Of a DNA stretch of 64,000 bases, positions 1,972-60,028 are shown one piece after another. The DNA comes from Lingula anatina (taxonomy: Eukaryota > Animalia > Brachiopoda). The DNA lies in the NCBI GenBank assembly GCA_051362555.1, contig CM120648.1, positions 10,784,587 to 10,848,586 on the forward strand, written 5' to 3'. Made by a program: the position numbers and the translations under genes. Position 1 is the stretch's first letter, and the number at the start of each line of letters is the position of its first letter. The notes under the pieces were generated by a model. The model was not told where the DNA came from and made no database searches. It saw nothing but the letters and a program-made list of their open reading frames with translations.

Positions 1972-2053
1972 TTAAGAATAGACATTAACAATTTTAAGAG
2001 TTAAGATAAAATGGATTTGAATGAATTATTATTTGCTTTTAGTGGTTTCAGAG

Positions 2054-16746: not shown

Positions 16747-16885
16747 TACCTACTGACAGCTTTATCCCCCACTGAACTTTTGTGCTAAGAAAACCTACCT
16801 TCACCATCTCGCGTTACCGGTACTCTATATTAGTACGAGAAGCTAGCTGCCTGGCGCCTTTTTATTTTTATTTTATCATTTCATT

Positions 16886-19657: not shown

Positions 19658-19700
<43 letters not shown>

Positions 19701-21001: not shown

Positions 21002-21042
<41 letters not shown>

Positions 21043-27789: not shown

Positions 27790-30700
27790 ATGGTCGATCG
27801 AGAGAGAGCTCTGGGGAGAAGGGCACGCGAGCCCTCTGGCGACGGTGACAGCGCTGTTCGAGCACAAGGCAGGCCGCTGCTGGAATGTTCGTTAATGCCA
27901 CCAAGACCGACAGCAGGCCTGCCGATTCCCAACGCCGCTGCTCACTTTTTAGCTCGAGAACTAGGACATTGTTCACAGTGTGGATCTAATAGTTCAACAG
28001 CTGTGTCTTCGGTGGCTTCGGACTTAGACAGTTACGGATCAGGAAGGGATTTGCTTCCACCGCCTTTATCCTGCTCGAGATCGAGACAGATTTATAACGG
28101 TACGCCGGTGTATGATGACATTGAGGGAAATAGCCCTGTACAGTGTAAGAAAACGTCGAGGACGAGACGATGTTTATGTAGCCTATCCGTTAAATGTTTG
28201 CTCACTTTTTTAGTCATATTAACTGGTATTGCTGGAGCAGGGACAGTATTTTACTTCCTTATATATAAGCCCGATATGGAAAGACTCCAGCAAAAGATAA
28301 ACAAAACAGAAGACTTGGCGAGGTTAAAACAGGTACGGAATTCTTCATTTTATATCTGTACATTGCTACTGAAATATATTGGGGGGGGGGGGGAGCGCAG
28401 TTCAAATTTTGATAATAAATTGCGTTTTCATTTTACGTTTTAGTGACGGACGGATGTATAGTATTAATTTAAAGGCGAAAGATCCCTAGAAGGTGAATAC
28501 GTTTAAAAGGGTTTGCATGTTTAGGCACGGCTAGGGTGTGGTTGGTGATGTAACAGTTTATCGTTCTCACTTCACTAACCAACTTTTATTTATTATCCGT
28601 AGATATATTTGCCTCTTTTTTCTAATGTGAATCCCCGCCCCCTTCAAAACTGTCTGAACGCGTTTTTGCAATGATTTAATTCCACGACTTTTTCCTCTGT
28701 TTTGTGCGCCTTTTGTTTAATTTGGTTTCAATTTCGATAAAACTTGCCTCATTGTTTCATTTTCGTTTTCAGTATAATGGTGAAAATTTGAAGAACGCAC
28801 GCCAGTTAGAAGGGGAAGGCCCTTCTGCATTCCTTTATGGGAAGAAGCCAGAAAGAGGTAAATTTCACTGTACTTTTGAAATATATGTAAAAAAGAAAAT
28901 AGACAAATAAGTCTTCAATATAGCCTACATTGAAGATAAAACAGGCAGTTGGGATTAATCAAATCTTTCATTTAATTCTTTCAAACAAAAAAGTTTCCTT
29001 TCCAGTGTTGGAAAAACCTCATCTAAAATAGAAAATTATTCTCCATAAATAAAAGAATTGAATGCCTCAGGCGCCTGTCGTCTGCACACTGCAGTCGTTC
29101 ACACACCTGAGCATCGTTATCTTAGCGTAACGAGGTCAACATCGGTCACTTTCGCGGAAGTCCGGAAATTCCGAAGTTGTGAGACCAGCGTATTGCACGT
29201 TACAGGTGTATTGGTATTCCATTGAATAGTTTGTTTTATAAACATACCTTATAACCGCAGTGAGTCATCGGATGAGATAACAATTGCAGAAGAATTTCGA
29301 AAGGGTTTTAGGGATTTACATACAGAATAGGCCCGAGGTTTTGATAACTTTTGGCCTTTACTCATAACTCGGGGAATATAATTTCGATTTTGAGAAACCA
29401 TATCATAATATTTTGCATGTGCAACTGAGACAATTTAGTTTTATTATCTCGCATTGGGTATTATTCCCCATTCGCGTGTAATTGATAGGGATAGGCCTTT
29501 CCTATATATATTGCCTAGTCTAATATGACAGATCCAGGGGTAGGCCTATTTCGAAAACCAAAAGTAAAGTCAACTAGAGCTCGTCGTATGACGATATAGA
29601 AATCACGCAGTTACCTACTCAGCTGCTGAGGGCGGATCCAGAGATATTTTCTGACAGTCTTCCAAATTATCTTTGTTGATCCATCCACCATTTTTGACCG
29701 TCTTCCGACAGAAAAAATTAGATACCCCTCAATGTAAACTTTAAAATCTTACCGTCTTCTGGAAGACCCAGAAGACCGCCTAAATCCGCCCCAGCAGCAT
29801 TACACCACCTAAGTCAACAAAAAAGCAAATGTGCGGAGTTGAACTCATATGAACTGAAGACATCTTTTTTTTTATATTTGTCAGTTTATGAGCTGGGGTA
29901 TTCTAATTGTTTTCTAAAATAGCTGGAAATCTTTTTAAAAAATTATGTAACGTTTTTGGAATGCAGATGCATTAATTAGGTTATCTGCATTTAAGTAAAT
30001 AAATAAATATGTAAAAGACATAGTAGGTTGCTACATTTATTGTTTTAACAATAAAATTTAAAATAACTATGTCAGAAATAACACACAAAAAAAGCTGAAT
30101 CGAAAATGTTTGGAAAATTTTTTTCTAAATAAATCGGGACAGCAGAACGAATTAAGGAGAGAGGGAAGTGGAAAAATGACAGGAAACAAAAGGAACAGAT
30201 AAATAAACAAACAAAAAAGGGGGAACAAAGAAAAAAATAAGCAAAAGAAATGAAAATCAAGCCAAGAAACAATTTTTAAAAAATCTTGAGATTCAACCGT
30301 AATTTAAAAATCATATCCTTTTTTATCTTATCGCAGGTGATCCAACACCAATTGTATGGGACACTGAAAAACGACGAAAACCCCGCAATACCATTCTCAA
30401 GAATATCACCGAGCACAAGATTCGAAATGACCATCATCTTAGGGTACACCAACGTGGAATATATCGGGTTCAAAGCCACCTTTGCTTCAAAGTTCAAGTG
30501 GACGGAGCAGATGACATCTCGAGCACCTCACTGACTGCGAGCGACGGGGACGAACGAATCGGCAGAGGGCGCTCCAAGACGTTCTTACATTTTGTGATAA
30601 GAAATTGCCAGGGAAACGAAGATGAAGTGTTGAAAACTTTGAAGCTGGTTTATCTGCTGCCAGGAGAGGAGTACAAATACTGCAGCGATCTGTCCGGCCT

Positions 30701-30821
30701 TGTTGGCATGGACAGCGGCTGCTCTTTGTATACTAAAATTAAATGTGAAGACGACTCAAGTGACCTTACACAATATATGGAGCATTATAATTGGAACTTT
30801 TTTGGATTAAACAGAGTGTGA
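27790..30821 (+). CDS. TNF superfamily ligand (type II membrane protein, ~370 aa)
   Basis: Exons 27790-28332 (phase 0), 28773-28857 (phase 1), 30337-30821. TM LLTFLVILTGIAGAGTVFYFLIY. TNF homology domain hallmarks: PSAFLYG (strand A), IVW, LRVHQRGIYRVQSHLCF, terminal NFFGLNRV*. Confidence 0.9.
29629..29793 (-). mobile_element. ~168-bp MITE family 3 (GGGCGGAT...ATCCGCCC termini), copy in TNF intron 2
   Basis: Reverse complement of copies at 41151-41317, 41545-41713 and 45126-45293. Confidence 0.8.
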
Positions 30822-38299: not shown

Positions 38300-40040
38300 T
38301 ACAGACACAGATATGTCTGTACATATAGCCATCATCTGCGTCTGTCGTCGCCGTCGTCGCCGTGCACTTTTACCGATAACACGATAAGTGGAAAACCATT
38401 TTACCTTTTGACTTGAAACTTGCGGAACTGATGAATATTCATAATACGCAGGTCAAGTTCGAAAATCAGCATGATCGGGTCACTTTTAGGGAATTTATGC
38501 TGTTTTTTCACTTTTTTCAGCATATATGCAGCACCGATAACACGATAAGTGGAAAACCATTTCACCTTTTGACTTGTAACTTACAGAACTGATGAATATT
38601 CATAATATGCAGGTCAAGTTCCAAAATCAGCATGATCGGGTCACTTTTAGGGAATTTATGCTGTTTTTTCACTTTTTTCAGCATATATACAGCACCGATA
38701 ACACAATAAGTGGAAAACCATTTTACCTTTTGACTTTAAACTTACAGAACTGATGAATATTCATAATACGCAGGTCAAGTTTGAAAATCAGCATGATTGA
38801 GCCATTTTTAGGGAATTTATGCTGTTTTTTCACTATTTTCAATATAAATGCAACACTGATAACACAATATAAGAAGTTAAGATGTGACTTTGAACTACCA
38901 TGAGCCTGCAGCCCTTTGCTAGTCACATTTTCTGAATGTCCATGTTACTAATATTCTATTATTAAAAATTGATGGTCATTATGCTGTTTAACATTATGTA
39001 ATGTTGCATCAAAATTTGAAGAAACCCCTATTTTGGGCACTGCTCCCATGATGACCATTTAAGGAAAATCATGTCACTTACTGTGCTCAAACTTACAGGA
39101 AAGAAACTTGGGTCTAAATTACATGTGTTCAGCTTCTGTAGGCAATGCAGTTTGTTTGGTAATTTTTTTCTGGCAATTAAACAGTTTTTTGTGAAAATTT
39201 TATTTTTCACTTATTGGCATTTTCAAGGTGTGACTTTGAAGTTCCACGATCCTGAAGACCTTTGCTTGTCACTTTTTCTGAATGTCCATGTTACTAATAT
39301 TCTATTCTTAAAAAATTGATGGTCATTATGCTGTTAAGCATTATGTAATGTTGCATCAAAATAGAAGAAAACACAATTTTTGGTGCCGCTGCCATGATGA
39401 CCATTATGAGAAAACTGTGTTACTTATGACTATCAAACCTTTAAAAAAGAAACACTGGACTAAAATGCAGCCTGAGTTGGAAAAGCAGTCTAATTGGCTT
39501 CTTTTTCTGGAAGTTATACATTTGAGTGAAATATTCATTATCTTTTTGGCTCCCATGGACATGAAGGCGAATGGTAATCAAATTTTCTACATGTCCATGC
39601 TATTTATAGTCAATAATCAAAAATTGGTGATAATTATTCTACAATTTATTATGTAATGTTACATCAAAATTGACAACAATCTTTTTGCACTGCTACTGCA
39701 AACATTATGAAAAGAAAACTGTGTTACTTATTATCATTTTTAACTTCCAAGTATGATTTTAAGGATTGGCATGCAGTTCAAATTAGAAAGCCAGGTCAAC
39801 TGGGTTATCATTTATTATTGACTTTATGCAATTTTGTGTGAAATTTTCATTTTTCTCATTCTGGCAATTTCTAAGTATAAACTTGAACTCTGATGGGCCT
39901 GAAGCCTTATGCTCTTACTTTAGTCGGTGTTACCTGTTGTGCATAATTAAAATTTGATAATGACTGTGCAGTTAAACATAATGTATTATTGCATCAGAAT
40001 TGGTAGTCTCCTATTTTGTGCATTATTGTTTTGTGCTTTC
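38300..40040. mobile_element. Helentron/HINE-like non-autonomous element with ~161-bp tandem repeats
   Basis: Head ...gccatcatctgcgtctgtcgtcgccgtcgtcgcc; units start at 38372, 38533, 38694. Related copy at ~47380-49550, fragments at ~55680-56445. Confidence 0.6.
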
Positions 40041-40045
40041 CTTAA

Positions 40046-40381
40046 AGTGATAATAACTCTTCGTTTCGGCCAAAAAATGAATTTTACTGGAGTAAACAAC
40101 AATTTTCTCATACTTACCAATGGTTAATAAATCCATTTTTACATTCAAAGCTAGTCCCTGGTTTTTTTCTAAAAAGTTTGGTTTTTTGTTAAAATCTCTT
40201 AAGTGATTTTAACAGAGTATAGCCATCAATGGAGGTCACGTGGTCAAAGACAAGCTCAGATATCAGAATAATAGCTATAACTGCCGTTTTTGTGGTAAAA
40301 CAGAATATATTATATTTCTATGAGTTATTCACAATGTCTTTACTATGAAATATAGATCTCTAATGAAGAGTTATTATCCCT
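40046..40381. mobile_element. TTAA-flanked MITE family 1, copy 2
   Basis: TTAA|AGTGATAATAACTCTTC...GAAGAGTTATTATCCCT|TTAA. Confidence 0.8.
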
Positions 40382-40693
40382 TTAAGATGTGACTTATGGG
40401 CCTGAGAGGCCTTTGAGAGGGTCAGTCTGTAAATTTCCCTTGGGTATCACTTAGCTTAGTTTTGAGTTATAAATTCATTTGCCTAATTGATTATTAATAG
40501 GCCATTAAATCAGATTACATAAAGCACACTTGTTGATATCTCCCTGTAAACTCCCAAAGGTTAAGCTCTGCTAGATTAATAATAAGGAAGCAGTGATAAT
40601 TATGGAGGTAAATTATGCAGGTAATTACATATATATATATATATATCAAACACGAAGATGAAAAGTTTGAATAGCAGCATCATTGGAATTATA

Positions 40694-41713: not shown

Positions 41714-42452
41714 AAACTTGTGGCAAGAAATAATTTCATGAAGGGGGGAGGGGTGCAAGGAGTGATAGGGTATTGCAGTTCTTACATACCATGTCTGATA
41801 CAGTCATTGAACTGTACTGTCAGAAAATTTTATGAAATCTTATTAATTCTCCACTTACGTACTAGTAAAATTTGGGCAGAAGTTCCAAATGTAAACATTC
41901 CATCGTGACTGCTATGCAGAGTTAACTCTGATTAAACCCTTTAGGCTGTATTCCCAGAGCTTTTAGATCGATCTATCCCCGCGGGGAGTCTCACTAGATA
42001 ATTGTCAGATAATTCGGCTTAAATGTCCGTCCGGCCTACTACAAGCTGTAAGGGGGTAATTAACTTTCGTGGCCGCTTGGCTGACCGCTATGTAGCGTGA
42101 ACCCCCAGGGAGTTAGGTCGATCTAAAGTAGATTGATCTAATCTCTGGAAATGGGGTCTTAGTAGATTTCTGTTTATTTGGACCGTGGTCAGGGGTATGT
42201 ACAGGGTAGTCTGTTTAGATTGGAATACTTATAACTTGTTAACCCAGATATAGGTCCTAAGGACCTTGGTAAGGTCTTAACCGCGGTCGAAAATGCAAGT
42301 GTGAATGGGGTATATGTCGTCTACAGAGGAGTTGAGTGTTTATGGTACTAGTTCTGTCGCTTTACCATTAACATTTTTCTCTTGTTTTAGTCCCTTGTTG
42401 AAGGGGTTACCATAGTGACAGTAACCTTCCATACCCGCCTGGTTATTCGGCT

Positions 42453-45400
42453 ATGTTGGATATATACAAGGTAAGTGCTGGTTAGAAAAACACAAGTTAG
42501 AAATCTTATGATGTTTTGTAATATTTACCTGGGTTGAATAAAAAATTATTTAGTACCACCAGCGTGTACGCTGGCGGTACTCATGGTTTTAGTCCCGATC
42601 CGTCTCATCCGGCTCCGTAAGCTCCGCCGGCTCCGCGTACTGGCGCCGGATACAAGTCACCGTTACCGCTTCTCCTCCTAGACCGCAAGGACCCCTGTCC
42701 CCATCTCTTGGATTTAGGTCACATATAACCTCAACTTGAACCCCCAGGTTTTTTTGTCTCAGTCAGTGCATTAACCTGGGCGTGACGCTCGTTGAAATGC
42801 ACCCTTGTCAAATTTTTGAAAATTCAATGCCAATTATCTACCCTACGGAAGGAATTATGGGAAAAATTTATACAGACGGCTTTCCAAAAGTCATGTGTAG
42901 ATTTCAAATATGCCCTTGGATTTGACCTTTGACCTTTATTTCAAGGTCAAACGGGCCAAAATTTTCAAAAAAATGAAATTTTTTACAAAAAAAATATTAT
43001 TTGCGCTGTTATTCAGACACTACACAATAATATTATTGGAAAGTTTTACCCTTTGGGTCATCTTTCATCTTCGTGAATTTGGGGTCAATCGGTGCATTTT
43101 CATGGGAGAAGCGGCCATAAGATACCGAAACTGAAAACTGTCTCTAATTCGGGAACCGTTAATGCTAGCATCCCATTCTTTTTTGCATTTTGTAGAGCAT
43201 GTAAAGCCCAACATTGAAGGTGGTCTCTGTTTTTTTGTATTTCATACGGTTTTCGTGTTATGCTGTATTAAAAAGTTCATTGTGGTGGCACATTATTGTA
43301 ACTCAGAATTGTAACATTTAGTCCCTTATATCTCCAAAACTGGCAGAGATAGGTCAATAGTTATTATTTAAGTTGAATAGGAAGTCACTTACTGGCATTC
43401 TAAATGTGACCTTGAAATTGACCTTTGACCTATTTTCACCATGAACTGAACTTTGCAAATTTTTGTTCCCTTTTATCTCCAAAACTGGCAGAGATAGGTC
43501 AATAGTTACTATTAAAGTTGAATAGGAAGTCACATACTGGCAATTTAACAGTGACCTTAAAATTGACCTTTGACCTGCTTTTCACCATGAATTGAACTTT
43601 GCAAATTTTCGTTCCCTTTTATCTCCAAAACTGACAGAGATAGGTTCAAAGTTACTATTGAACTTGAATAGGAAGTCATAAACTGGCAATTTACTGTTAC
43701 CTTAAATTTGACCTTTGACCTACTTTTTACCATGAACTGAACTTTGCAAATTTTCTTTCTCTTTTATCTCCAAAACTGGCAAAGATACGCCCATAGTTAC
43801 TATTGAATTTGAATAGAAAGTCATTAGAGGCAATTTGCTGTGACCTGAAAATTGACCTTTGACCTACTTTTCACCATGAACTGAACTTTGCACATTTCCA
43901 TTCCCTTTTATCTCCAAAACTGGCAGAGATAGGTCCATAGTTACTATTGAACTTAAGTAGTAAGTCATATACTGGCAATTTACTGTGACCTTAAAATTGA
44001 CCTTTGACCGTCTTTTTACTATGAACTGAACTTTGCAAATTTTCTTTCTCCTTTATCTCCATAACTGACAGAGATAGGTCCATAGTTACTATTGAACTTG
44101 AATAGGAAGTAATACACTAGCAATCTGTGACCTTGAAATTGACCTTTGACCTACTTTTTATGATGAACTGCTTTTTGCATGTTTTCGGGCCTTTAAATCT
44201 GCAAAATTGGCAAAGAAATGCCCATGGTTGCTATTGAACTTGAATAGAAATTCATATACTATGATATTGAAATTGACCTTTGACCTACTTTTTCACCATA
44301 AACTGAGCTTTGCATATTTTCTTGCCTCTCATATCTTGTGCCCCTGATGTGCCCCTTGTTACCCCTAGGTTTTCTCTTTTGTCAGCATAAATGCACCATT
44401 GACAACACTTTTCAAGGAAAACCAATAGGCCTTTTGTCTAGAGAATACAGGAGTGATCAAAGGTAGGAAAATGCAAGTCAATTCAAAAATGTGCTTGATT
44501 GTACCATTTTTAGTTATATTTTTTTGCATATTTTGAGAACTCTTATTGATTGCATCTTAAAGAGCTTGTCAAGCATAAGACTGGTGATGGTGTCCCTTTT
44601 TGGAGGGGGGGGGGGGTCCATACGAATGCGCTTACTCCAGCTGGTGGTACAATATCCGGAGGCGGTATCGCCTCTCTGATCCTCTAGTTTTACTTGTAGT
44701 AGATGCATAATTTTACTAGTAGCTGTATAAAAATTTTGAAGAATATAAAATATGTGAGTTTACAGCGGATTTGTTTAAAAGAATCTGCTAATGTGGCTTA
44801 AATATGTGGCACGTCTACTGAAGCTGCTAAACAAAAGTTTATTACCCCTTACAGCTTCAGTAGGCATGCTAGACATTAGAACGGCTTAGGCTGAACTTCA
44901 TGCAATTTAGTGAGAAACCCCTTGATGATGGATAGATTTTGCTTTATCCATCTAGGTAAGGGAACGGGGTGTAATTCTATTGTTTTTTATGGGTTTCTCT
45001 CCAGAAAATTGCCATCATTCTTTCCTGCCTAGCTTACCTACAAGGCATCAAGACCTGTGATCCAGGTACGTATGCACGAACATGTGCATGCATGCATGTT
45101 TGATTCTACTGATAATCATAAATATCAGGGGAGGATTTAGGGCGTCTTCTGGGTCTTCCAGAAGACGGTCAGATTTTCAAGTTTACATTGACGGGTATCT
45201 AATTTTTTCTGTCGGAAGACGGTCGAAAATGGAGGATGGATCAACAAAGATAGTTTGGAAGACTGTCAGAAAATAACTCTGGATCCGCCCCTGAATATGT
45301 ATGTGTAAATGAACATATTTGAAGTAGCAGACTATATATATTACTTGTAAGTGAGCATTGTTATAGGCGGTAGACATGTGAAAATCACCATTTCTTGTAT

Positions 45401-48400
45401 TAATATTTCTGTGAAGAATTTCTATGTGACTGAACATGTTTTAAATTAGGAAAAATAAGGAGCAACAGTTTTATTGAAACTGAATGTGTGATTGTGAAGA
45501 ATGCTTCCTAGGTTGTATGTCAAAGTGATTTATCATTCTTATAATCCTCTTAGTTATATTTGCATTTATTTATTTATCATTTCATTATGTACATATATTT
45601 TTATTATTTTTAACGTTTATTTCTTTATTATTATGTACATTATTTAAATATATTTTTATTTTTTATCTTTATTTTTTTTAATCATTTCATTATGTATATA
45701 TTTATTTTAATTATTTTTTATCTTTATTTATCTATTAGGCCAAGAACCTGATGGCAATGGCGGTTGTAAAGAATGTCCGCCTGACTATTTTAATGCTAAT
45801 AACAGTCCTGTGGACTCCATACTTTCCTACTGTATAGCATGGACCAAATGTAATGGAGATGGCCAGTATATATTAAAAGAAGGGACTTCTCAAGAGGTGA
45901 GTAAGTTACCATCAAGTGTCCGGCCTGGTGCAGGCATAGACCCCATTTCCATAGATTTTTAGATCGATCTATCCCTGTGGGGAGTCTTACTAGATTACTG
46001 TCAGCTTGGCCGGCTTAAGCGTCTGTCCCGCCTACTAAAAGCTGTAAGGGGGTAATTAACTATGGTGCCCGCTCGGCTGACTGCAATTTAGCGTGAACCC
46101 CCAGGGAGTTAGGTCGATCTAAAACTTAATCTTTAGATCAATCTAAATCTCTAGGTAAGCACCCATAGAGGATCAGGGTCCAGTTTAGTCTATTGTCAGT
46201 CAGTTGGATGTGCTCGTTATTGTACAGTTGTTGATTTGTTGCGAAGGCATTAAGGCTATCAATAAATGATGTTCTTTGTCTTCATCTGCTTGTTCTTCCT
46301 TCAGTTTTCTCACAGAGTACCAGTGTTTCTATTCCATCTGTTCTGATGATATGGCCTAAAGATTTCGTTTGTCCTTTTCTGATTGTTTTCATCAGTGAGC
46401 GTTGTAGGTGATTGATTATAAATATATCATGTGAGTTTACTATGGATTGTCTAAAAACTGTAGAATTTTATACCTTTTGCCTATAAAAGAGAGCATTATG
46501 ATCAGTATGCTAAGTACTAGAGTACTTATTATTATGCTAAGGACTGAAAAGTGACACAAATTACAACTTTTTGGTACAAAGAGAGGGATTTTTTTTCTCT
46601 TTTACATGATTTTCATGTCAAGTAGAGTAATTGTAATAGCAGATCAGCCAAAGGCTTCTTTTCACTACCCTAGGTTCTAGATTCCGGTATTGCCAGCTCG
46701 ATCTTGATTTCATATACAACCCATAGTAGCAATACCAGGCTCTAGCGAACAGTGGCAACTCGGGGGCGTTCTTCTTCAAAATTCTGCCTGAGGCGCTTCC
46801 ATATTTGGAAGTCACACGTCACAGCTGTGTCCGCCTGGATCCATATTTGGAAGTCATAAGTCTCGTACGTCACAGGTTTGGCCGCCTGGAGCTGCCTTTC
46901 CCGCCTTGCGCTGAAGTCTCGTGCAGGCGAGACAAGAAGCAATTTAAGTGCCTGACGCGGAGTTAAAAGTTTGAATTGAAAATATCTTGCAGTCGAAGGT
47001 CAGTGCCACAATACAAGCAACATTCTGCTGTAAAAACTTATTTTCGTATAGCCATTGCGCAGCCCTTATAGTGGTATCGGGCATACGGTGTAGCTGTCAA
47101 ATTTGGCACACGGCAAGCACATGTATTGTGCACGTGTATATCTCAAGACTAAATGTTCTTTGATAAGTAAAAAATACAAAAACATTGGATATATCTTTTC
47201 TTTCCGAAGAACATTATTTATTTTTTCACTTTACATGTTAAATACAGCAAATAAAATTAAATAAAGCAGAATTAAATTTGTTTTACGTTTTATTTTGGTC
47301 TGATGACATTCAACTGCATTTTCACTGCGGAACAGTTCTATTTGATTGATGGAAAACTTTCGTGGCCGCTGGTCTTCAGAGTTAGTAAAAGCGACTGCAC
47401 ATAGATGTGTCTGTACATATTGCCATCACCTGCGTCTGTCGTCGCCGATCATGTCGCCGTCGCCGTCGCCGTGCACTTTCAGCGTTAACACCATAAGTGG
47501 AAGACAGTTTTACTTTTTGGCTTTATATTTACAGAGCTGACTAATATTCATAAAACGCAGGTCAAGTTCGAAAATCAGCATGATCGGGCATTATTGTAGA
47601 ATTTATGCTGTTTTTTCACTTTTTAGCATATATGCAACACTGTTAACACATTTCAAGGAAAACCGATAGGCCTGTTGTCATGAAACTCACAGGAGTAATC
47701 ATTCTTACTAAAACACAGGTCAAGTTCGAAAATCGGCATGATCGGGCCACTATTTTAGTAGTTATGCTGTTTTTTTCACTTTTTAGCATATATGCAACAC
47801 TGTTAACACATTTCAAGGAAAACCGATGGGCCTGTTGTCATGAAACTCACAGGAGTAATCATTCTTACTAAAACACAGGTCAAGTTCGAAAATCAGCATA
47901 ATCGGGCCATTATTTTATAAGTTATGCTGTTTTTTCACATTTCCTCAGATTCAATTCTTAGGCATGTTAACAGTCTCATTATTTAACTAATAAGATTCGC
48001 AAAAGTGTTTGTTTGACATTTCCTGCATCTTTACAACATTGTTAGTTGATTATGTAAAAATGATGGTAAACTTGGTATCATGTATTGTATAATAGAGTTT
48101 CAAAAATGGAAATAAACTCATATCATTGCAGTTTGTCAGATTTAATCATTCACTATGTTCAGAAACTCCTAATGGAGGAAATTGGACATTAAACACTGTT
48201 CTATTGATATTTTTCCCATCTCATCAATTTTCTTAGTTGATCATATAAAAATGGCAGTAAATTGTTAATTTTGTTATATGTAAAAAAATTGTTAAAAATG
48301 GAAAAAAACACATTTCAGGACAGTGCTGTCTTGTCTACATTTTGGCATTTTCAAGGTGTGACTTTGAAGTTCCATGGGCCTGAAGACCTTTGCTAGGCAC

Positions 48401-49933
48401 ATTTTCTGAATATCCATGATATTAATATTTTATTATTAAAAATTGATGGTTATTATCCTGTTAAACATTATGTAATATTGCATCAAAATTTGAAGAAACC
48501 CCTATTTTGGACACTGCCCTCATGATGACCATTTAAGGAAAACCATGTCACATACTGTTCTCAAACTTACAGGAAGAAACATGGGACTTAAATAAAGCTT
48601 CAGTGGGCAATGTAGTCTATTTGGTAAATTTTTCTGGCAGTTAATCAGTCTTTTGTGAAAATTTAATTTTTCACATATTGGCATTTTCAAGGTGTGACTT
48701 AGAACCTCCACGGGCTCTAAGACCCATGCTAGTCACATTTTCTGAAAATCCATGATACGGATCTTTTATTATTAAAAACTGATGGTCATTATGCTGTCAA
48801 GCATTATGTAATATTGCATTAAAATAGAAGAAAACACAATTTTGGGTGCTGCTGCCATGATGACCATTATGGGAAAACCACGTTACTTATGATTGTCAAA
48901 CTTTCAAAAAAAGAAACAAAGGACTAAAATGCAGCCTGAGTTGGAAAAGCAGTCTAATTGGCTTCTTTTTAGTGAAATATTTATTTTTATCATGTTGGCA
49001 TATTCATTGTGGGACTCGAAGCTCCCATGGACATGAAGCCAAATGGTAATCAAATTTTCTACATGTCCATGCTATTTATAGTCAATAATCAAAAATTGGT
49101 GATAATTATTCTGTAATTTATTATGTAATGTTACATCAAAATTGACAAAAATCTTTTTGCACTGCTACTACAAACATTATGAAAAGAAAACTGTGATACT
49201 TATTATTATTTTCAACTTACAAGTATGATTTGTAGGATTGGCATGCAGTTCAAATAAGAAAGCCAGCTCAAATGGGTTATCATTTATTATTGAATTTAAG
49301 CAGTTTTATGTGAAATTTTCATTTTTCTCATTCTGGCATTTTCAAAGTGTGAACTAGTACTCCCATGGGCCTGAAGCCTTACGCTTGTTACACATTTCAC
49401 TTACATTGGTATTACCTGTTGAGCATAATTAAAATTTGATGTTGAATTTGCAGTTAGGCATAATGTACTTTTGCATCAGAATTGACAGTGGCCTATTTTG
49501 TGCATTGTTATTGTCTGCTTTTTGTCTGTACATTTGACAGCTTTGCTGCCTTGTTACATTCAAAGTTAGTCCCTGGTTTTTTTCTAAAAAGTTTGTTTTT
49601 TTGTTAAAAGCTCTTAAGAGATTTTAACAGAGTATAGACATCATTGGAGGTCACGTGGTCTAAAGACAAGTTCAAATATCAGTATAAAAGCTATAACTGC
49701 TGTTTTTGTGGTTAAACAGAATATATTATATTTCTATGAGTTATTATTGTTATTATTGTGAAAGGTTTTTATTGTGAAATATAGGTCTCATACAAAGAGT
49801 TATTATGCCTTTAAATTTCAGCATGTCTGACAGGTGTCATATATTAAATGTCAATAACACTACATCAGATAGCAGGATTTACTGGCCCAGTAGTAATGTC
49901 CTTGGCTGCCAAACACTGTTCTGTTTTGTTCTT

Positions 49934-49968
<35 letters not shown>

Positions 49969-51382
49969 TTAAATAGTGTATACTAATCTGTTATCATGGT
50001 TAAGTAATTGATGTGATGGGTATCAGCTAGTAGATTATTTATTATGGTTTCCACTTATTGTTATGACCCTTTACATATACATATGAGATGAATGTCCTAA
50101 ACTTATATAATTTTGAGCGCTTAATTCAAGCATGGGCTCGAAATAGGACATTATATTTTCATCTAACTTAGTGGATAACGTGATCCAAACATTCCACGGT
50201 TCGTGTCAGATTTACGTTAGGTCGTGCAAAGAAAAGCCAAGTCCACATAATGACCAGTTTAATGGTTTTTGGTTAAATCTCTTGGGCTACATGTTCTACG
50301 TGAAGCCTCCAACTTCCAAGCTGTCTCCCATGGCTCTGTCGAGCGGTCACCTTTGCGTCATCTTCAGTCTGAACCCCCAATATTAATTCTGAATGTCTTT
50401 TATACAATATTTATTATCAGTGGTGGATTCTGTGCTGCATTATTTGGCGGTACATACTAATTTTTAATTATTCAAATTGCACACGTCCACTTACGTTATA
50501 TAACTACAGGTAAGGCCATAAAACGAGTCGAGTGCACAAGCAATCAACTCCAATCAAATTAATTTACATGTCTGGAGATAATAATTGTGAACTGAACATT
50601 ATGGGACATAATATAAAATTCATAATAGGCTTATCTAAAACCAGTCTCTTTTTATGTCAGTTAGTAGGCCAGTCCCTGTTTTTATCATTTCTCTTTTTCT
50701 TAAGTGAGTCAGTTATAAGCTAGATATCACTATGCACTGTCATGTTGCTATTTATCAAAGGTAAGCTTATATCCAACATTCAGATTGAATCGTCTGTTAA
50801 GGTAATTATAATGCCCTTTTGATATTTCTGTGTGATGACCTGAGGATTATTTTCACTTTGTATCAAGAAAATGAAATTGTATTGTTGTCTCTATCGTGTA
50901 CAATGTAAATAATCTTATGTATAATGTTCATTTAAAGCCATTGCTGTTTTATCTCAAGGCTAAATTCACAACAAACTAAATTCAAACAAGTCATGGCTCA
51001 GTACATTTATTTCACTTTAGAACTTGGTCATTACTCCAGGACACTTTCAAAACCATGTTCATTTGAGATAAAATATTCTAGGGTAATATATTGCTGTATT
51101 ATAATTAATTTTTTCTCAGTTTCCTTGTTCAAATTGATATAAAATTAAAAGGTTTCCTGTACTTATGTCAGCTTGAGCTGACTTGGTTTAACTTCATTTT
51201 ACTTTAGGACCGCCGATGCTGGTGCAATGAAACGGCAGGCTACGGACCGAAAAAACCGAAGCGATGTTACAAAGGCGGCATTGTGCAAACTGGAGAGCTG
51301 GAGGAGGCGTGTCAGTGTCGCAAGTGTAAACTGGCCGGAGACTGTCCTCTGCTCAGGGATAAGAATGGAAGTCAGTGCCTTT

Positions 51383-51421
<39 letters not shown>

Positions 51422-52377
51422 TTTGATTTTTATGTGTTTATTTAATTTTCATTTCTTGATTTATTTATTAAATTTTTATTTATTTATCAATCAATTTATT
51501 TATTTGATTTTTATGTGTTTATTCATTTTTTTATTTGTTTGTTTGTTTATATTTTATTTAATTTTCATTTCTTGATTCATTGATTTAATTATCATTATTA
51601 TTTTATTTTACATTTTATTCTTTACTAAAACAACATGCGATTAAACAGGAAAAAAAAACAAATGGCCATATCACTTAAAGGCAAGAATGCAGATATCCCT
51701 AAGCTGTATTATTGACAAAACAGATGTTGAATTTGTAGAATCATTCAAATTGCTTGGAGTGTATATCTCTAATGACCTCACAATGGAGTGTATATCTCTA
51801 ATGACCTTCAAATGAAAGACTTCCATTATAGATTTATTAAGATATCAAATAGAAGTTTGTTTTCAAATTCAACAACAACCAAGAAATATAAGGAGCATTC
51901 ACATCGAGAAGAGCGGAGGTCTAGTAAGGCCGCGGCCTAAATATGGCAGACCTACATGAAAGGAAGACCGCACATCCTGTTAATCCTCACCACGCGTGGT
52001 CCCAGCAGGACCACAGTAATTAAATCTCAGCTCAATTCAACTGGTCGAGGGACAACTCGTAGAGGGAGGAGAGACTATTAAAAGAATAGCAGTCTTCCTT
52101 TCATGTAGGTCTGCCATATTAAGGTTGCAGCCTTACTAGACCACAGCTCTTCTCATCTTAAATGCTCCCATAGTATTGGTGTTCAAGCATTTTTTAATTA
52201 AGTTGATGTATTTATTTTCATTTATTGTATTTATTGGGCTGGCAGTGATTTCATCCTTAACACTTTGACTTAATATTTTCATCAATGTGCTTACTTAGCA
52301 AACATAAGAGTAAAAATACAATATCAAGATTTCAGCAGGGCCTTGGATGTGCAATATCTTCATTGGTTTTTGTCATG

Positions 52378-52430
<53 letters not shown>

Positions 52431-55400
52431 ATCTTATACATGAAACATTTCAGTCCTACTTGAAGTACTTACACTAGATGTGGGCCATGAAAGTATAGGT
52501 TTGAACTCTTGTCGGCCTTGCAGTGGGTATGTAAATACAGTTGAAATGGCATTATATAAATTCTAATAGATTTGCTCACTGGAAAGATTAGATAAAGGTT
52601 AGAACAAGGCATAAAATGTCCAGTATGTAGAAGAAGTCTCACTTTTTGCAATGTATGTTACTACTGTTGTTTTGCCTATAATCAGATAACTTTGTGGAGT
52701 ATTCAGGCTTTTAAGTTCCTATTTTGCTGCCTTAAGATATAACTCTTAACATAATTTTTCATTGACCCTGTTTATTTCCAATATACCTATTAACTTACTA
52801 ACAGAGTTCGTACTGTACCTGGAAACCTGGAATAATCATGGATATTTATTTTGAAATTTCCAGGCCCTGGAAAACCTGGAGAAATAGGTGTTTTTTAAAA
52901 AATGTAAAATTACATCTGGAAAACACCTTAAATTTGATAATTTTTCACAACCCCTATCGTTATACTAGTTCATGCACGGTTTATTTATAATTTTGGTTTT
53001 CACCAATGACCGCTAGATGTCTCATGTATGATCGGCATGTTTCGGAAATAGTCAAACTACAAATTTATTTGAATAATTAAAATGTTTTAGAGAAAATTTT
53101 GTGTTTTCTTTTAGGCTTTATAAAATATGACTGTATTATGATCTCAAACTAATATTCCCTTTCATGAAATATAATTTACAGCCTCAAATATTAGAAAGTT
53201 TTTACACCTGGAAATTTAAAAATAATCCTGGAAAAGTCCTGGAAAAATCCTGAAATTTTGTTGAACGTTTTGAGTACAAACCCTGTACTAAAATACATCA
53301 AAGAAACCCACTTTATTTGCCTTACCTGTAAAATATTGGTATGAAAAGCCAAAATTAATAATTTCTAAAATTAATTAGGATATATCTCCATGAGTGGAAG
53401 ATCCACATGCAAGCATAAACAGTTTTTGCTATTAATATTTAACATGAGGCTTGTCTTGTTCTTTCAGGGTGCCAGTGACACAAGTGGTGCCCCCTACAAC
53501 TAAGCCAGTGACAAGTTCAGTACCTTTGCCAACCAACTCCAGTGATGTCACAGACCACACAGGAATTGCAGCTGCTTCCACACCTAAAGAAAAGACGAAC
53601 TATTCAGTAGTCATTGGTGTTCTTGTCGCAGTAGTAGGCGCAGTGGTGATAATAGCTGTGATAATAGGTAGTTGTTGTTTGTGAGTTTTAAAAGGCCAGT
53701 TTTAAATCAAAATGGACCAACATATTCATTGTTAGTCCAGGCTATCTCACCTAGTCATTTGAAGCTGGTCCCTGGGCTAAACCAGAAAATTTTTAAGATT
53801 CAAATTTGAGTCATCTTAGGGGCCATTCAGAAAAGAAGATGTGAGTATCAGCTGGTCCAAGGATCAAATATGGCTGATCGTATATGAAAGGAAGACTGCT
53901 TTATCCTGTAATGGTCTCTTGGCCTCTCACTCCCCTCCCCACACATTGTCCCTGCAGGGGCACAGTAATTCAATCTCTGCTCCATTCAACCAGACTAAAA
54001 AGAATTATTGATTGATAAGTTATTATTTGTTGTCAAAAATCAGTATTTTTTAGATTGTTGGAGACCCAAGGAACATATTTTTAGATGCATTTTACTGTCC
54101 TATGAGCTGTAATGTGTAGAGATATGAAATTGTATATGAGATACTTATTAAAATATATTTTATTTTCAGTTATATGGAAAAGATCAGGAAACTCATGCCA
54201 TGTCACAATGTGTAATTGTGTTAAAGGTAAAAACCACAGTGGACAACTTTTATTTATATAGTTTAAAAGAATGCTTTACATTGAAAACCACTGTTGTATA
54301 TACAGTGCTTTATTTAGTTTTTAATCTTGAAATTGCATAACATATTATTTACTTAAGATTTACAGACATGCTGAAATTGTCGGTCTGAACAGTCATGTCA
54401 GGGAAAATTTGTCTGGACCAGTGAAAAATTGGACTTGGTCGGTCCAAAGGACCAACAAGAGTTTTAAGAATTGCAATTTCGAATATACAGTCATCATTCA
54501 ACATACTTCACTAATCAAATTATTTAAAACACAAAGTGTTTCTTCCCTTCCATTTCAAACCTATCACATTCACAAACAAAGTAAGCTACCTATTCATACT
54601 GGTATTATCTGTCTCAAACAGATAGGGTGATTTTCGCTCCAACAAAAATCTATTTGGTCCGGCCATTCTGAAAAGTTTTTAGCATGTCTGGATTTAAATG
54701 AATTGTAAAGATCAAAATACTGCTTTTATGGTACAATAAAGAATCATTTGTTTCTCTTTCAGGAAACATTCAAAATAGCCATCAGTATGATCCTGTTAGT
54801 CGGTCCTCATCCGGGAATTACCAAAATGGCCACACCAGTGGCTTGGATAGGGAAATGTCTTTAATGGCTAACAGTGACCCAGAGAATGAAAGCAGTCTTA
54901 CTGTAGTGAACGGTAAATAATCTTGCTAGATTTGGATTCATTAGCATTAAGTTTTCAAAATTGAGTAGACTGAATAACTGACTGACTGGATCCTTTTGAT
55001 GTTTGTATTGTATGTGTCATCAATTAAAAATTCCAACAGTTGTAAGTGTTAGTCTTAAAGGTAACAAAAGCTCAATTTTATAGAAATTTCGGGTCTTTTT
55101 TTTAATGCCACCTCCATTGTTCCTTAAATTATGATCCTTATAGATGCATACAAAGTCAATTTTTTGTCACAAAAACCAACCAAATGCCAGCATATAGTTT
55201 CAAGTAGTATAACTAAGAGAATTGCCAAAAGGCATTGTTTAATTTTACCCGAAAATGATGTTTGAACGGATTTTTCTGCTGGCATTCTAAGCTGTATGTC
55301 AATGGGGCAGGAAAGTAGGTCACGAAAGTAGGTTAAATTTACAACCAAAAATTTAAAGAATGGAGCAGTCTAAAGGTCTTTTATGGCTGATCGAGTGATC

Positions 55401-58238
55401 TATTCAGTTTACCCCTTGGCATGTCGAATTTATTTGAGTCATATAAGAATCTAGTAGAAGTGGTTTACATGTGTTACTGGGAATCCACGCTCGGTTCGTA
55501 TGTACCTTTAAACCAGTTTTTGACTTCCTTATTTCTTGTTTCTGGTCTTCAGAGAATGGCCAAAATGACCATGTCAATAGTTTGCCAAGGGAAGAGCAGT
55601 TACAGAATGGTGCTGTGGAAAGAGAGGGTGGTCAAATGCAAGGTATTGATTGATCGGGCCAATATTTTAGAAGTTATTCTCACTTTTCATCTTATATGCA
55701 ACACTGTAAACACATTTCAAGGAAAACCAATAGGCTTATTGACATGAAACTCACAGGAGTGCTTAATTTTACTAAAATACAGGTAGAGTTAAAAAATAAG
55801 CTTAATTGGTTCAGTTTTGATGCAGTTATTCCTTGTTTTGTTTATAAGTGCTTTTACCTCAGATTCAATTCTTAGGCATGTTTACAGTCTCATTATTCAA
55901 CTAATTAGATAGGTATAACTGTTCTTTTGACAAATTTTTCATCTTTACAGTATTGTTAGTTGATTACATAACAATGGTGTTAAACCTCTATTAATCTATT
56001 GTATAATTAAGTGTCAAAAGTGGATAAAAAACAAATCATTGCAGTCTGCCAGATTTAATCATTTACTATATGTTCAGAATCTCAGAATGGAGCAAATTGA
56101 ACATTTAACATGGTTCTATTGATATTTTCTACATCTCAACAATTTTCTTAGTTGATCATAAAAAATTACAGTAAATTAATTGTTTTATGTAAAAAAAAGT
56201 GTTAAAATGGAAATAAACCCATTTCAGTACAGTTCTGTCTTGTTTACATTTTGGCAATTTATGGTTACACATTTTACTTACATCTGTAATACCTGTTGAG
56301 CTTAATTAAAATTTGATGTTGAATTTGCAGTTAAGCATAATTGTGTTAAGCATAATGTTAAGCATAATGTACTCTTGCATCAGCATTGACAGTAGCATAT
56401 TTTGTGCATTATTATTTTCTGCTTTTTGTCTGTACATTTGACAGCTTTTTTTAATGCCACCTCAAAAATTGTTCCTAAAATTATAATCCTTAAGCCAGTT
56501 TTTGACTTCCTTATTTCTTGTTTCTGGTCTTCAGAGAATGGCCAAAATGGCCATGTCAGTGGTTTGCCAAGGGGAGAGCAGTTACAGAATCGCGCTGTGG
56601 CAAGAGAGGGTGGTCAAATGCAAGGTATTGATTCTTGGCCTAAGTTTGAAAATCGGCCAATACTGTAATGGCCGAATCATTTCAAATGGGAAAATTATCA
56701 ATATTTCAGATACATAAATTTAGAATCATCAAAAAATACTTTCTTGTGTATCATTTTGGTGCTTTCACTTTTAAGAAAAGAAGTATTAGGTAGTCTGCTT
56801 TTTACTTAAAATATATAGTGTTATAGGGGGTACTAGATAAATTCACAATTTTCCTGGTTGAAATGATGTAGCCTTTACCATATTCATTGGATAAAACTGA
56901 GCAGACTTTTTAGGTTGAGGTATTTTGTCTTTTGTGACACCCAAAAAAAATAAATTTAGTAGTTTTATTTTATGGCAATCCTGGACTTGTTATAATTATG
57001 ATGTCTGCCGTGTACATATAGTAACTTTTAACAAGGTGGGCTGAAAGACAAAATATTTCACTTATACCAGTCTAGTAAAGCTACTTAAGTTATTTAATAA
57101 GCTCTCAAAAAGTATGTCAAAGACCAATACATGTGTTTTATGTATTAACAATAAAAATTTCACTTATGCTATGATCATAACCAATTTTGGAGTCAACATA
57201 TTTTATTTTTCTAACAAGTCGTTATTTACAATTTCTGTAATTGAAAAAGCAAAAAAAAAAAAAGAAAAAAAGATAAACAGCCATGTTTCCCAACCTTTTT
57301 CACATACATGTAGAAGATTATTTTGCTTCAATAGTTTATAATAAACTTTTTTTCTGTCAGGTGATGATAATCCAGTCCCCCCAGTTCGTTACAAATACGA
57401 CCTCTTTCTGGTGCATAGTAGTGAAGATGAGGAGGAGGTTCTCGAGTTAGCAGAACGCCTGGAAGAAGAACATGGCATAAAATGCTGCTATGCTGACAGA
57501 GATTTTCAACTTGGGAAGCGTGTCATGAACAATGTGGAAGATCTTTTCAAGGAGTGTAGACACATAGCACTTTGTTTGACTAGAAATTATTTGGCTAGTA
57601 GTTGGTGCCAGCATGAGCAGAGCATGGCACTGGGTAAAGCCACAGAGAATGGCGGTCAGGGGATGATCCCGCTGCTCTTCAGTGGCTTTCCCGAGTCTGA
57701 TGTTCCACCAACCCTGAGAGCTTACTCGTACTTCAAACTGACTTCTGATCCACAGTCTTTAGCACAGCTTGCCAGACATATTAAAGGTAATAACAAAGAA
57801 AAAAGTGTCTGCTTCGGAGGGAATTTATAGATGATAACCACTTAAGAGAAAATATTCACCAGTTATTATCCCCAGGGCTGCTGAGGGTCTATAACTGGAG
57901 GGTTAATATATGCATAAGGGCATAGTGTTTTTCACCCTGTCTCTTAGGAGTTTATCCCACCTCACTCAAACTTTGCTACATTTTCTAGAAATTCTTAAAT
58001 TATACGGTGGCTGGGATGTGCTGTATTTTAAAATTTTTAAAATGTTTATTCGCCAAAAAAAAAAAAAAAAGAATTAGTGCCCAGTCTCACACTAACCGAA
58101 TTTTTCTGGTAATGAAGAAAAAATTGTAAATCTAATTCTGCAAATAACATATTGCATTAATGGATGTCAATTCTGCAAGTAGGTAAATCTTGCAGTATTT
58201 GAATTTTTTATTCAGAGTGCTTTTATTTTTCAGGCTGA
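42453..58238 (+). CDS. Type I receptor with TNFR-type cysteine-rich ectodomain and cytoplasmic TIR domain (~470 aa)
   Basis: Exons: 42453-42470 (MLDIYK); 45005-45065 (KIAIILSCLAYLQGIKTCDP, signal peptide); 45739-45896 (CKECPPDYF...CIAWTKCNGDG...EGTSQE); 51208-51370/4 (DRRCWC..., 7 Cys); 53468/76-53667 (Pro/Thr/Ser stalk and TM); 54170-54226; 54763-54912; 55553-55642; 56535-56624; 57361-57786 (TIR: YDLFLVHSSED, CYADRDFQLG, YLASSWCQHE, IPLLF); 58234-58238 (stop). All junctions are frame-consistent except exon 4/5, which has two in-frame solutions. Confidence 0.82.
42549..44400. mobile_element. Helentron-like element with terminal hairpin and ~145-bp tandem array (about 7 units, 43320-44335)
   Basis: Hairpin agtaccaccagcg-tgta-cgctggcggtact at the start; units begin near 43329, 43474, 43620, 43765, 43909, 44054, 44196. 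Confidence 0.7.
45126..45293 (+). mobile_element. MITE family 3 copy with 5-bp TSD
   Basis: AATAT|CAGGGG...CCCCTG|AATAT. Confidence 0.85.
45939..46155. mobile_element. MITE family 4 (agaccccatttcc.../...ggaaatggggtct), second copy at ~41945-42160
   Basis: Two close copies with internal inverted repeat tagatcgatcta; degenerate relatives near 44800-44970 and 58680-58935. Confidence 0.7.
46270..46410 (-). mobile_element. RTE-like LINE fragment
   Basis: Minus strand translates TIRKGQTKSLGHII, resembling the RTE reverse-transcriptase C-terminal region. Confidence 0.45.
47380..49550. mobile_element. Second Helentron/HINE-like copy with ~160-bp tandem units
   Basis: Same head (gccatcacctgcgtctgtcgtcgcc); units at 47560, 47718, 47878; long collinear match to ~38880-40030. 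Confidence 0.65.
51690..51810 (+). mobile_element. LINE (L2/Rex-like) reverse-transcriptase fragment
   Basis: Translates EFVESFKLLGVYISNDL, matching the common xKxLGVxI motif. Confidence 0.55.
51892..52168. mobile_element. Fold-back MITE with ~75-bp inverted arms
   Basis: ggtctagtaagg...atatggcagacctacatgaaaggaagac versus gtcttcctttcatgtaggtctgccatat...ccttactagacc; partial relative at ~53818-53995. Confidence 0.8.
52802..53285. mobile_element. CAG...CTG MITE with 6-bp TSD
   Basis: TACTAA|CAGAGTTCGTAC...GTACAAACCCTG|TACTAA; internal cctggaaa repeats. Confidence 0.7.
54363..54690. mobile_element. CAG...CTG MITE with 6-bp TSD
   Basis: GATTTA|CAGACATGCT...AGCATGTCTG|GATTTA. Confidence 0.75.
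55142..55507. mobile_element. TTAA-flanked MITE family 2, copy 2 (inverted relative to 10757-11133)
   Basis: Reverse-complement match to 10757-11133; empty site visible in the duplicated segment at ~56490. Confidence 0.85.
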
Positions 58239-59582
58239 GGGGAACAGAGGTCAAGGACTTTGGAAGCTCAAGGTCATCCTGTCATCGGTCACTCTCACTA
58301 GATGATTGCTAGTATCAGTCTTCTGGAGGGAGGATGACCATCTGATAAAACAGAGATTTGTGGTTATTTATTTAGTTAAGCTGTTGTCCCACAGTTCACA
58401 GTGCAGCTGTTTTTCGGCAGTTTTAGATGCAGCTGTTGTCCAAGTGATGCTCTTGGGGCGCAGTTCACAGGGCAATTGTTCAACAATAAAAATTGCCCTT
58501 TTTTTTTGGCATGATAAAGATTGCAATTCTCAACAGACCTTAGTGCAATTTGAACTGTTATAAAACACATCTGAAATGACGTAAAATTGCCAGGCAGTTG
58601 AGGTTTGCATGGTCCTGGAATGCAGTCCCTTTCATACAGTATGTTGGGGGGAAATGGTGGACCTTTATATTATATTTTAGGGTGCATTCCCATTTACACC
58701 ATTGCTCTACATAGGTCAACCCGCTTTTGCAGGGAGTCTCACTGAGTGCAATTAGCTTAACAGATTTCCACTTCGCCTCCTTGCTTTAGTAAATCACAGA
58801 GAAGCTGGTGATTGTACAAGTATGTTGGAAACAGAAAGAGGTGTGTCATTCAATTAAGCTGATTGCACTCAGCGAGAGTCCCTGCAGATTTAGTTCAATC
58901 CATGTAGACCGTTGGTGTCTATTGGAATGGGGTCCTACACCTTCAATATGACAAATCTGTCATGGAAATATGTTTATGTCAGTGAGATGTTTTGCAATTA
59001 AGGTTTTGATAATTATCCATGTTATAGTGGATTATGTGTAGAAGTATTTTAATACTTATATTTAATACTAATATTTAAAAATGTGTACAAACAAGGAAGA
59101 TGCAACTTCAGTTCTAAGAGTCAGGTAGCAGAGTTACAAAAAAAAATTTTTTTTATTTCACAACTCAATTCATTTTGGGATTTATGTAAGTTTAATATTC
59201 TCATCTGTAATGAATTCTTATAAGCTGTTGACAGAGCTTGAATTTATTGATTTAACGCAATGTGCATCAAAGAATTGCATTTATTTAATCATTAATGTTG
59301 AGTCAGAGTATTCTTTTTAAAAGTACCTGCTTTTTCTGTGATCAGTGCATTTTTTCAACTGCATGACCATTGTTAAGATTCTGAAGTATTCCACACCAAG
59401 GTCCGCTGTATATAATGAAGATTTATCTTTGTTTGTGTGCTATCAAGCTTTTTTTTTCTTCAACTGGTGATATTTATTGAAAATGCAAAATGTGGTTGCC
59501 CTTTTCTTTTCATATTGGACTAAGCTATAAATCCTATGTTATGTCTGTTCCTGGTCCTGTCACTATTTAATAACAACACTTG

Positions 59583-59652
<70 letters not shown>

Positions 59653-60028
59653 TTTTTGGGGGGGGGGGTAGAAAGCTATTAATAAAACTTTATAAAATGT
59701 TACCTGCACTACTTTTGGGTAAAATGATGTTTCTGAAATATACTTCCTAAGTTTGAATAATTCTGCTAAAAGCTGCAGTGTATCCTTTCTTCCATTGTGT
59801 AGTGTTCAGAATAGTGTAATTTGACCTTCATCTGTTTATGTTGTTTCTTTAGCTATATTTGAAGTGTGCAGCATAACCGTTGCATACAAAGAAATACATA
59901 TAGTTTAGAGTGAGAAAGACGGAGGAAGAGAATCCATGTTGCTCATTTTGAAAAGTGATAATGGGGGAAAGACGGGGGGGTGCAGGCCACTCATCCATTT
60001 TTAGATCTGTCCATTCTTACACAGCTAC

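Follow-up and report, generated by a model that had tools for sequence, protein, structure and literature searches.

Gene content of the window

The window, which is the whole 64,000-nt stretch of Lingula anatina DNA analysed here (contig CM120648.1), holds a receptor gene on its plus strand at 42453..58238 and a TNF-like gene upstream of it at 27790..30821. With positions 42000-60000 read and the exons joined by coordinates, the receptor gene comprises 12 exons with GT-AG borders throughout, and its predicted spliced frame of 496 aa, which has 0 internal stops, encodes in order a signal peptide, a cysteine-rich region, a Pro/Thr/Ser stalk, one transmembrane (TM) helix, a linker of ~125 aa and a TIR domain. 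Comparisons were made with the L. anatina proteins XP_013402594.1 (P0001, LOC106168180), XP_013410238.1 (P0002), those of LOC106168182 (P0004) and LOC106168187 (P0008), and the distant paralogue XP_013386228.1 (P0057, LOC106155781). The exons of both genes are as follows.

42453..42470, + strand: receptor exon 1, ATG and start of signal peptide (5/6 aa same as XP_013402594.1; in-frame stop upstream)
45005..45065, + strand: receptor exon 2, signal peptide core and first ectodomain Cys (17/20 to both RefSeq copies)
45739..45896, + strand: receptor exon 3, TNFR-type cysteine-rich module and most variable exon (TNFR_c6 E 7.6e-4; 4-1BB E 0.007; 32/53 and 41/53 to the RefSeq copies)
51208..51370, + strand: receptor exon 4, second cysteine-rich part with 7 Cys (48/54 to P0001; conserved in P0057; without Pfam match)
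52454..52526, + strand: receptor exon 5, last ectodomain CxxC, 73 nt (22/24 to both RefSeq copies)
53468..53667, + strand: receptor exon 6, Pro/Thr/Ser stalk and transmembrane helix (hydropathy peak; 63/67 to P0001)
54170..54226, + strand: receptor exon 7, juxtamembrane, three Cys (19/19 to P0001)
54763..54912, + strand: receptor exon 8, linker (42/50 to P0004)
55553..55642, + strand: receptor exon 9, linker, duplicate of exon 10 (136/144 bases the same between the blocks)
56535..56624, + strand: receptor exon 10, linker (the TIR-only model P0002 begins with its last residues)
57361..57786, + strand: receptor exon 11, whole TIR, 426 nt, phase 1-1 (142/142 to XP_013410238.1; 139/142 to XP_013402594.1)
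58234..58238, + strand: receptor exon 12, stop codon (P0001 ends at the identical residue)
27790..28332, + strand: TNF-like gene exon 1, cytoplasmic tail, type II TM and stalk (reading frame)
28773..28857, + strand: TNF-like gene exon 2 (reading frame)
30337..30821, + strand: TNF-like gene exon 3, TNF homology domain and stop (Pfam TNF E 0.0029)

The first-pass annotation had described eleven exons and a 12-Cys ectodomain. The signal peptide, stalk, TM helix, linker and TIR domain that it named are each found in the 12-exon frame, and these parts lie where it had placed them, but the exon at 52454-52526 had been overlooked; because this exon is included, the ectodomain, cysteine-rich as claimed, has 14 Cys rather than 12. 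The 11-exon model was rejected since both RefSeq sister proteins contain exon 5, whose CxxC pair is also kept in P0057, and eleven-exon versions are in frame only via alternative splice sites. The introns measure 447-5311 bp, GC is 46% in exons versus 33% in introns, and AATAAA occurs downstream of the stop at 58485 and 59681. A hydrophobic N-terminus and a single TM by hydropathy (peak up to 3.4 at aa 206-208, 19-aa window) give a type I topology, and a single-sequence model of P0001 (pLDDT 42) has helices at 2-20 and 203-230. By Pfam, the receptor contains no death domain and no LRR or Ig family, and it has no conserved TRAF motif; exon 9 of the window carries a TRAF-like tetrapeptide of a generic type, which is missing from the RefSeq copies. 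A second ectodomain cassette is absent from the window, and tblastn returned a single copy.

RNA coverage was taken from four of nine raw runs of the same species, two of which (X1 and X4) behave as stranded. Sorted by first-mate strand, the mean depth of X1 is 5.88 on the minus versus 0 on the plus strand in the TIR bin and 0.92 versus 0 in the exon-4 bin, and that of X4 is 2.49 versus 0 and 0.15 versus 0, respectively. This coverage fits low-level plus-strand transcription, either of the window gene or of its sister copies, from which reads of 92% likeness may derive. Splice-junction reads across receptor exons were not found among the 15 of 305 joints listed, all of which are intronic and repeat-filled. 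As no splice junction was seen, the single transcript is something that we infer, and we consider it very probable that the twelve exons lie on it. Repeats at 38305-40385, 43314-44336 and 47399-49815, both tandem (~145 bp) and dispersed, attract RNA reads by the hundred that stem from other parts of the genome.

The same data could be read as two units that gene prediction alone has joined: exons 1-10 would encode a TNFR-like decoy without a tail, and the TIR would be a gene of its own. RefSeq holds TIR-less (P0004, 339 aa, and P0008, exons 1-3 only) as well as TIR-only (P0002, 158 aa) models, AATAAA occurs five times in the stretch from the TM exon to the TIR exon, and the joints listed include no junction read. 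However, the frame runs without a stop up to the TIR; introns 6-10 are short (502-892 bp) and every one is in phase 1; P0002 itself opens with the end of exon 10 joined to the TIR exon; and in introns with a GC content of 33%, AATAAA is a common sequence. Moreover, two database models join all parts: the RefSeq prediction XP_013402594-6 (451 aa) joins signal peptide, ectodomain including exon 5, TM and TIR, and a second model of 589 aa also joins ectodomain, TM and TIR; with the TIR exon as query, one protein, that of LOC106168180, was returned among 405 candidates. We regard two separate units as very unlikely.

Several other features lie upstream in the window. Two tandem single-ORF genes (2021-3337 and 7133-8461, +), 79% alike in DNA, have Pfam APD1-4 N and M domains and Gly-rich N-termini. 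Two related ORFs (10175-10756 and 12374-12871, +) combine a coiled coil with a hydrophobic segment and give weak coiled-coil Pfam matches, and the broken-up ORFs at 15533-16813 (-) presumably resemble a Tc1/mariner transposase, judging by their motifs. Several ORFs at 19148-24706 (+) resemble exons of a secreted precursor: the start is signal-like, short motifs such as RFFVAP recur, dibasic sites are present and the last ORF is rich in cysteine. None matches a Pfam family at a meaningful score.

Ectodomain, its copies and a candidate ligand

Profile searches against TNFR_c6 and TIR/TIR_2, which the first-pass annotation had proposed, placed TIR and TIR_2 above their cut-offs and TNFR_c6 below it: exon 3 of the window matches TNFR_c6 with 20.3 bits, under the cut-off of 29.4 (E 1.9e-4 with a trimmed query), and neither the RefSeq copies nor P0057 match this family in Pfam. 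Against PDB sequences, 15 of the 17 matches of exon 3 are TNFR-family chains, 4-1BB being the best, and a four-row ectodomain profile found osteoprotegerin (E 2e-4). The sequence match to TNFR is limited to exon 3, and exons 4-5 match no named family. Thus the TNFR motif, which had been called typical, is backed by the TNFR_c6, 4-1BB and osteoprotegerin matches but is weaker than claimed, given the score under the Pfam cut-off and the unmatched RefSeq copies; judged from sequence, we take the TNFR_c6 match of exon 3 to be a divergent one that is still significant. Matches of the ectodomain profile to chemosensory proteins, a family that we take to be helical, were dismissed at E 0.04-0.17.

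Among the 10 structure rows returned for the Atlas model of the ectodomain, 9 bear a TNFR name or PF00020 at TM 0.42-0.56, with one row reaching the naming bar, and feature scores of 0.82-0.83 serve as leads only; in the Atlas search with the whole protein the best feature score is 0.79 and the structural rows are only TLR-type. A fold of the four-row ectodomain, poor at pLDDT 42.6, gave Foldseek E values of at least 0.67 with TNFR-family proteins in 8 of the first 10 rows, and a wide VIA-align search gave one row of Z 2.4, both results being uninformative. We consider a TNFR fold of the ectodomain highly probable. The earlier claim of one TNFR-TM-TIR gene is carried by the open frame, the sister-copy models and the ectodomain of the paralogue, and is held back by the TNFR profile score and the missing junction read; that a TNFR-type ectodomain and a TIR belong to a single gene is, in our judgement, probable.

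The paralogue XP_013386228.1 has the same 14 Cys (pairwise E 1e-21), a TM, a death-like domain (E 1.5e-4, 22.3 bits versus a cut-off of 22.6) and a C-terminal OTU domain; hence a member of the same ectodomain family is part of a death-receptor-like protein, and because the same 14 Cys here precede a death-like domain and OTU, the tail of the receptor has likely been swapped. Phase-1 introns on both flanks of one exon are the form typical of shuffled exons. A likely origin is that a TIR exon with symmetric phases, akin to those of Lingula ankyrin-TIR genes, replaced the death-domain tail of a TNFR-type receptor. A TNFR-like receptor with its own deubiquitinase (OTU) domain, as in XP_013386228.1, is itself unusual, and the isoforms of this protein include shorter ones of 526 and 561 aa.

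P0001, P0004 and P0008 are on record on one RefSeq contig of 902,781 bp, with different versions of exon 3. These are likely clustered in tandem, one copy being full, one TIR-less and one reduced to exons 1-3, and such a set could allow variable ectodomains or decoys; the window has one copy. Between the window gene and P0001, exon 3 is the same at 32/53 positions, exons 4-6 at 133/145 and the TIR at 139/142 (Fisher p 1e-6 for exon 3 versus exons 4-6 and 5e-11 versus the TIR). The window gene is closer to P0004 in exon 3 and closer to P0001 in exons 6-7, and this mosaic nearness suggests sequence exchange among the receptor copies.

The TNF-like gene (27790-30821, +) is complete and encodes a type II membrane protein of 370 aa in three exons. 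It is the upstream neighbour of the receptor on the same strand and ends 11.6 kb before it, with no other convincing ORF in between (ORFs of at least 60 aa, judged by eye). The Pfam TNF match has 18 bits versus a cut-off of 23 and spans profile positions 10-124 of 127; no PDB sequence matched the protein. The model is identical to XP_013393217.1 at 351/369 positions, and its RefSeq relatives are named only uncharacterized. In RefSeq, TNF-like genes are on contigs of 69,062 and 744,486 bp and receptor models on contigs of 902,781 and 324,545 bp; adjacency of ligand and receptor is thus seen only in the window. When the TNF-like trimer was modelled together with the P0004 ectodomain, in a run in which alignments were not used, the score was an uninformative 0.02. 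The neighbouring protein is a candidate ligand and no more; that the ligand is some member of the TNF family we find somewhat probable. Since the gene of a likely TNF ligand adjoins, the receptor would pass a TNF-type signal straight on to TIR signalling, and that it couples a TNF-type cytokine to the TIR, as the first-pass annotation proposed, is what we infer.

An alternative is a different ligand. The variable exon 3 might recognise, or escape from, a microbial or allelic molecule, so that the protein would be a pattern or allorecognition receptor and its TNF-like neighbour a coincidence. The low identity of exon 3 beside that of exons 4-6 and the TIR is in keeping with this, as are copies that look mosaic and vary in number and RefSeq contigs on which ligand and receptor are apart. 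Yet TNFR-type modules usually bind TNF-family trimers, and variation in exon 3 could come from paralogues with different TNF ligands or from gene conversion. We consider a non-TNF ligand rather unlikely.

The TIR domain and its putative output

Exon 11 is certainly a TIR domain (Pfam TIR_2 E 3.2e-21, 76.5 bits, cut-off 28; TIR E 2e-14, 54.2 bits, cut-off 21.3). In sequence alignment, the Glu at the catalytic position (codon 57615) falls opposite that of TLR15 and TIR-STING, and the BB loop has Leu (codon 57510) where TLR15, oyster TIR-STING and MyD88 have Pro. Among 150 aligned TIRs, 146 have the Glu, 79 the BB-loop Pro and 16 the Leu; since it is present in nearly all of them, the Glu discriminates little. 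The nearest single-domain TIR among the matches listed is that of a Lingula ankyrin-TIR protein, with 42% identity and the same BB loop, and the best single-TIR relatives, within the best 150 of 2921 matches, are Lingula proteins. A quick tree of 149 TIRs, from which P0003 was left out and whose search was unfinished, placed the receptor TIR in an 18-row group with no LRR-labelled member at an SH-aLRT of 91, i.e. under 95. The name 'toll-like receptor 5' that RefSeq gives to the TIR-only XP_013410238.1 was rejected, as this model is without LRR.

To our knowledge, every characterised transmembrane TIR receptor signals via a scaffold, in which a MyD88-type adaptor, IRAK and TRAF6 lead to NF-kB. 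The BB-loop Pro is needed for adaptor recruitment by TLR2 and TLR4, and plant TIRs are generally enzymes. In the available text of bioRxiv 10.64898/2026.04.20.719644, 12 of 61 Glu-bearing animal TIRs made cADPR, mostly outside the TLR/IL-1R clades and including a Lingula TLR TIR, the other 49 were inactive in the E. coli assay, and only 9 of 64 plant and algal TIRs were positive in the same assay. Because so few of the plant proteins scored, this assay probably under-reports TIR activity, which slightly favours an enzyme output over a pure scaffold. A TIR without BB-loop Pro and with the catalytic Glu makes an NAD+-cleaving output, on sequence grounds, at least as plausible as an NF-kB/adaptor output; an enzymatic rather than purely scaffolding TIR would have, in our estimate, just over an even chance.

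The same receptor and TNF-family ligand could instead act through the TIR as a scaffold that recruits a MyD88-type adaptor, IRAK and TRAF6 and leads to NF-kB, with which enzyme activity may coexist. Such signalling is established for the characterised transmembrane TIR receptors, the best PDB matches of the TIR include TLR15, MyD88, TLR1 and TLR6, and most Glu-bearing animal TIRs in the preprint's available text were inactive in E. coli; on the other side stand the Leu in place of the BB-loop Pro and the grouping of this TIR away from LRR receptors in the tree. We rate a scaffold receptor of this kind as fairly improbable.

We tentatively prefer enzymatic signalling, which taken as a whole still falls short of an even chance. 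The twelve exons would make one type I membrane receptor, TNFR-like and cysteine-rich outside and with a TIR inside; a trimeric TNF-family ligand, possibly the neighbour-encoded one, would cluster it, and the clustered receptor would signal by TIR self-assembly and NAD+ cleavage. The narrower proposal, that the TNF-like trimer encoded 12 kb upstream switches on NAD+ cleavage by the receptor TIR itself (giving cADPR or NAD+ depletion), is unlikely by our own estimate.

Relation to known receptors and meaning

With HMMER, 2921 proteins among 1.84 billion representatives pass E 0.001. Three of the best 150 match via the ectodomain, and all three are from Lingula; the other 147 match via the TIR, and none of these fits the ectodomain (next best E 0.2 and 0.13), a comparison that an independent TNFR-TIR protein with a distant TIR would escape. 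Pfam scans of 31 of the best 150 (top five families each) gave LRR, ankyrin, TPR, Sushi, Frizzled and Fn3 partners and no TNFR, and word-based protein searches returned Lingula proteins only. Hence no TNFR-TM-TIR receptor was found outside Lingula in the best 150 of 2921 matches. This absence of relatives, together with the low RNA depth, would also be seen with a young lineage-restricted shuffling product of little function or a dominant-negative decoy. However, the 12-exon frame is intact with its cysteines fully kept, and the TIR is 98-100% conserved between copies while the ectodomain varies; a product of little function or a decoy is therefore most improbable to us.

Gerdol et al. 2017 reportedly treats TIR proteins in bivalves and Metazoa, and Gerdol et al. 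2018 is said to treat the Lingula immune system; neither is covered by the literature search by title and abstract opening, and with the phrase 'TNFR-TIR', in which the TNFR-TM-TIR architecture was not found. TNFR-TIR is likewise absent from the available text of PMC2575513, PMC4979521, PMC8662601 (which cites both Gerdol et al. papers), PMC9153377, PMC11463336, PMC8195603 and PMC9334734, and 'TNF' is absent from the available main text of bioRxiv 10.64898/2026.04.20.719644. A Salpingoeca protein in the PMC4979521 supplement with a weak TIR_2 match at residues 9-99 was rejected, as the TIR is N-terminal and the topology another one in the portion available. Within the literature and databases searched, the first-pass statement that no receptor of this architecture has been characterised is borne out, and the pairing is new in that we did not find it described. 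The Gerdol et al. surveys or the preprint's architecture tables could already list the receptor, in which case it probably stands there as an orphan TIR, its ectodomain being invisible to Pfam.

The receptor shares its type I topology with the TNFR superfamily (4-1BB/TNFRSF9, osteoprotegerin/TNFRSF11B, death receptors), and its cysteine-rich module aligns with the last module of 4-1BB and osteoprotegerin; the superfamily has a death domain or TRAF tail, whereas the Lingula receptor has a TIR instead. Like the TLR and IL-1R families it is single-pass with a C-terminal TIR, and IL-1R already couples a cytokine to a TIR, but those families have LRR or Ig ectodomains, whereas the Lingula receptor has neither, carries the long linker and no BB-loop Pro, and has a TIR nearer to ankyrin-TIR proteins than to TLR/IL-1R. 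Since it lacks the features tested as defining each family, the receptor is no formal member of TNFR, TLR or IL-1R; it should work like a TNFR outside and like a TIR receptor inside. The same design principle is found in invertebrate TIR receptors with swapped ectodomains, namely EGF-TIR and Ig-TIR, named in the available text of PMC9334734, and the Sushi-, Frizzled- and Fn3-TIR proteins among the Pfam-scanned HMMER matches, none of which, unlike the Lingula receptor, was seen with a TNFR-type ectodomain or an adjacent TNF-like gene. The nearest precedent is the amphioxus TNFR-caspase, a cDNA-verified protein in which a TNFR ectodomain is wired to a non-canonical effector, there a caspase and here a TIR; the list of TIR partner domains from 13 genomes in the same paper includes no TNFR in its available text (PMC2575513). 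With catalytic animal TIRs (SARM1, cADPR-making TIRs) the receptor TIR has the catalytic-position Glu in common, and by analogy with them activation triggered by oligomerisation is plausible. The receptor is best placed with the invertebrate TIR receptors built by domain shuffling, and to date it has turned up only in Lingula.

In the usual teaching, TNF receptors and TIR receptors start separate pathways, which converge only further downstream. The natural hybrid described here shows that TNFR and TIR modules can be joined in one protein, within the limits that the family is so far known from Lingula only and that domain shuffling is common in marine invertebrate immune genes. Receptors of this family will be classed as orphan TIR proteins, as their ectodomain goes undetected by Pfam. 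The hybrid also bears on the role and ligands of invertebrate TNFRs without death domains, a question posed in the available text of PMC4979521. If the TIR is catalytic, the gene pair would be a candidate ligand and receptor for cytokine-triggered, TIR-made cADPR in an animal, which the available text of bioRxiv 10.64898/2026.04.20.719644 leaves open. If true, a cytokine-gated enzyme receptor would be a TNF pathway without a death domain, TRAF or adaptor step, and brachiopods would have a receptor family in which a shared ectodomain is wired either to a TIR or to a death domain and OTU deubiquitinase.
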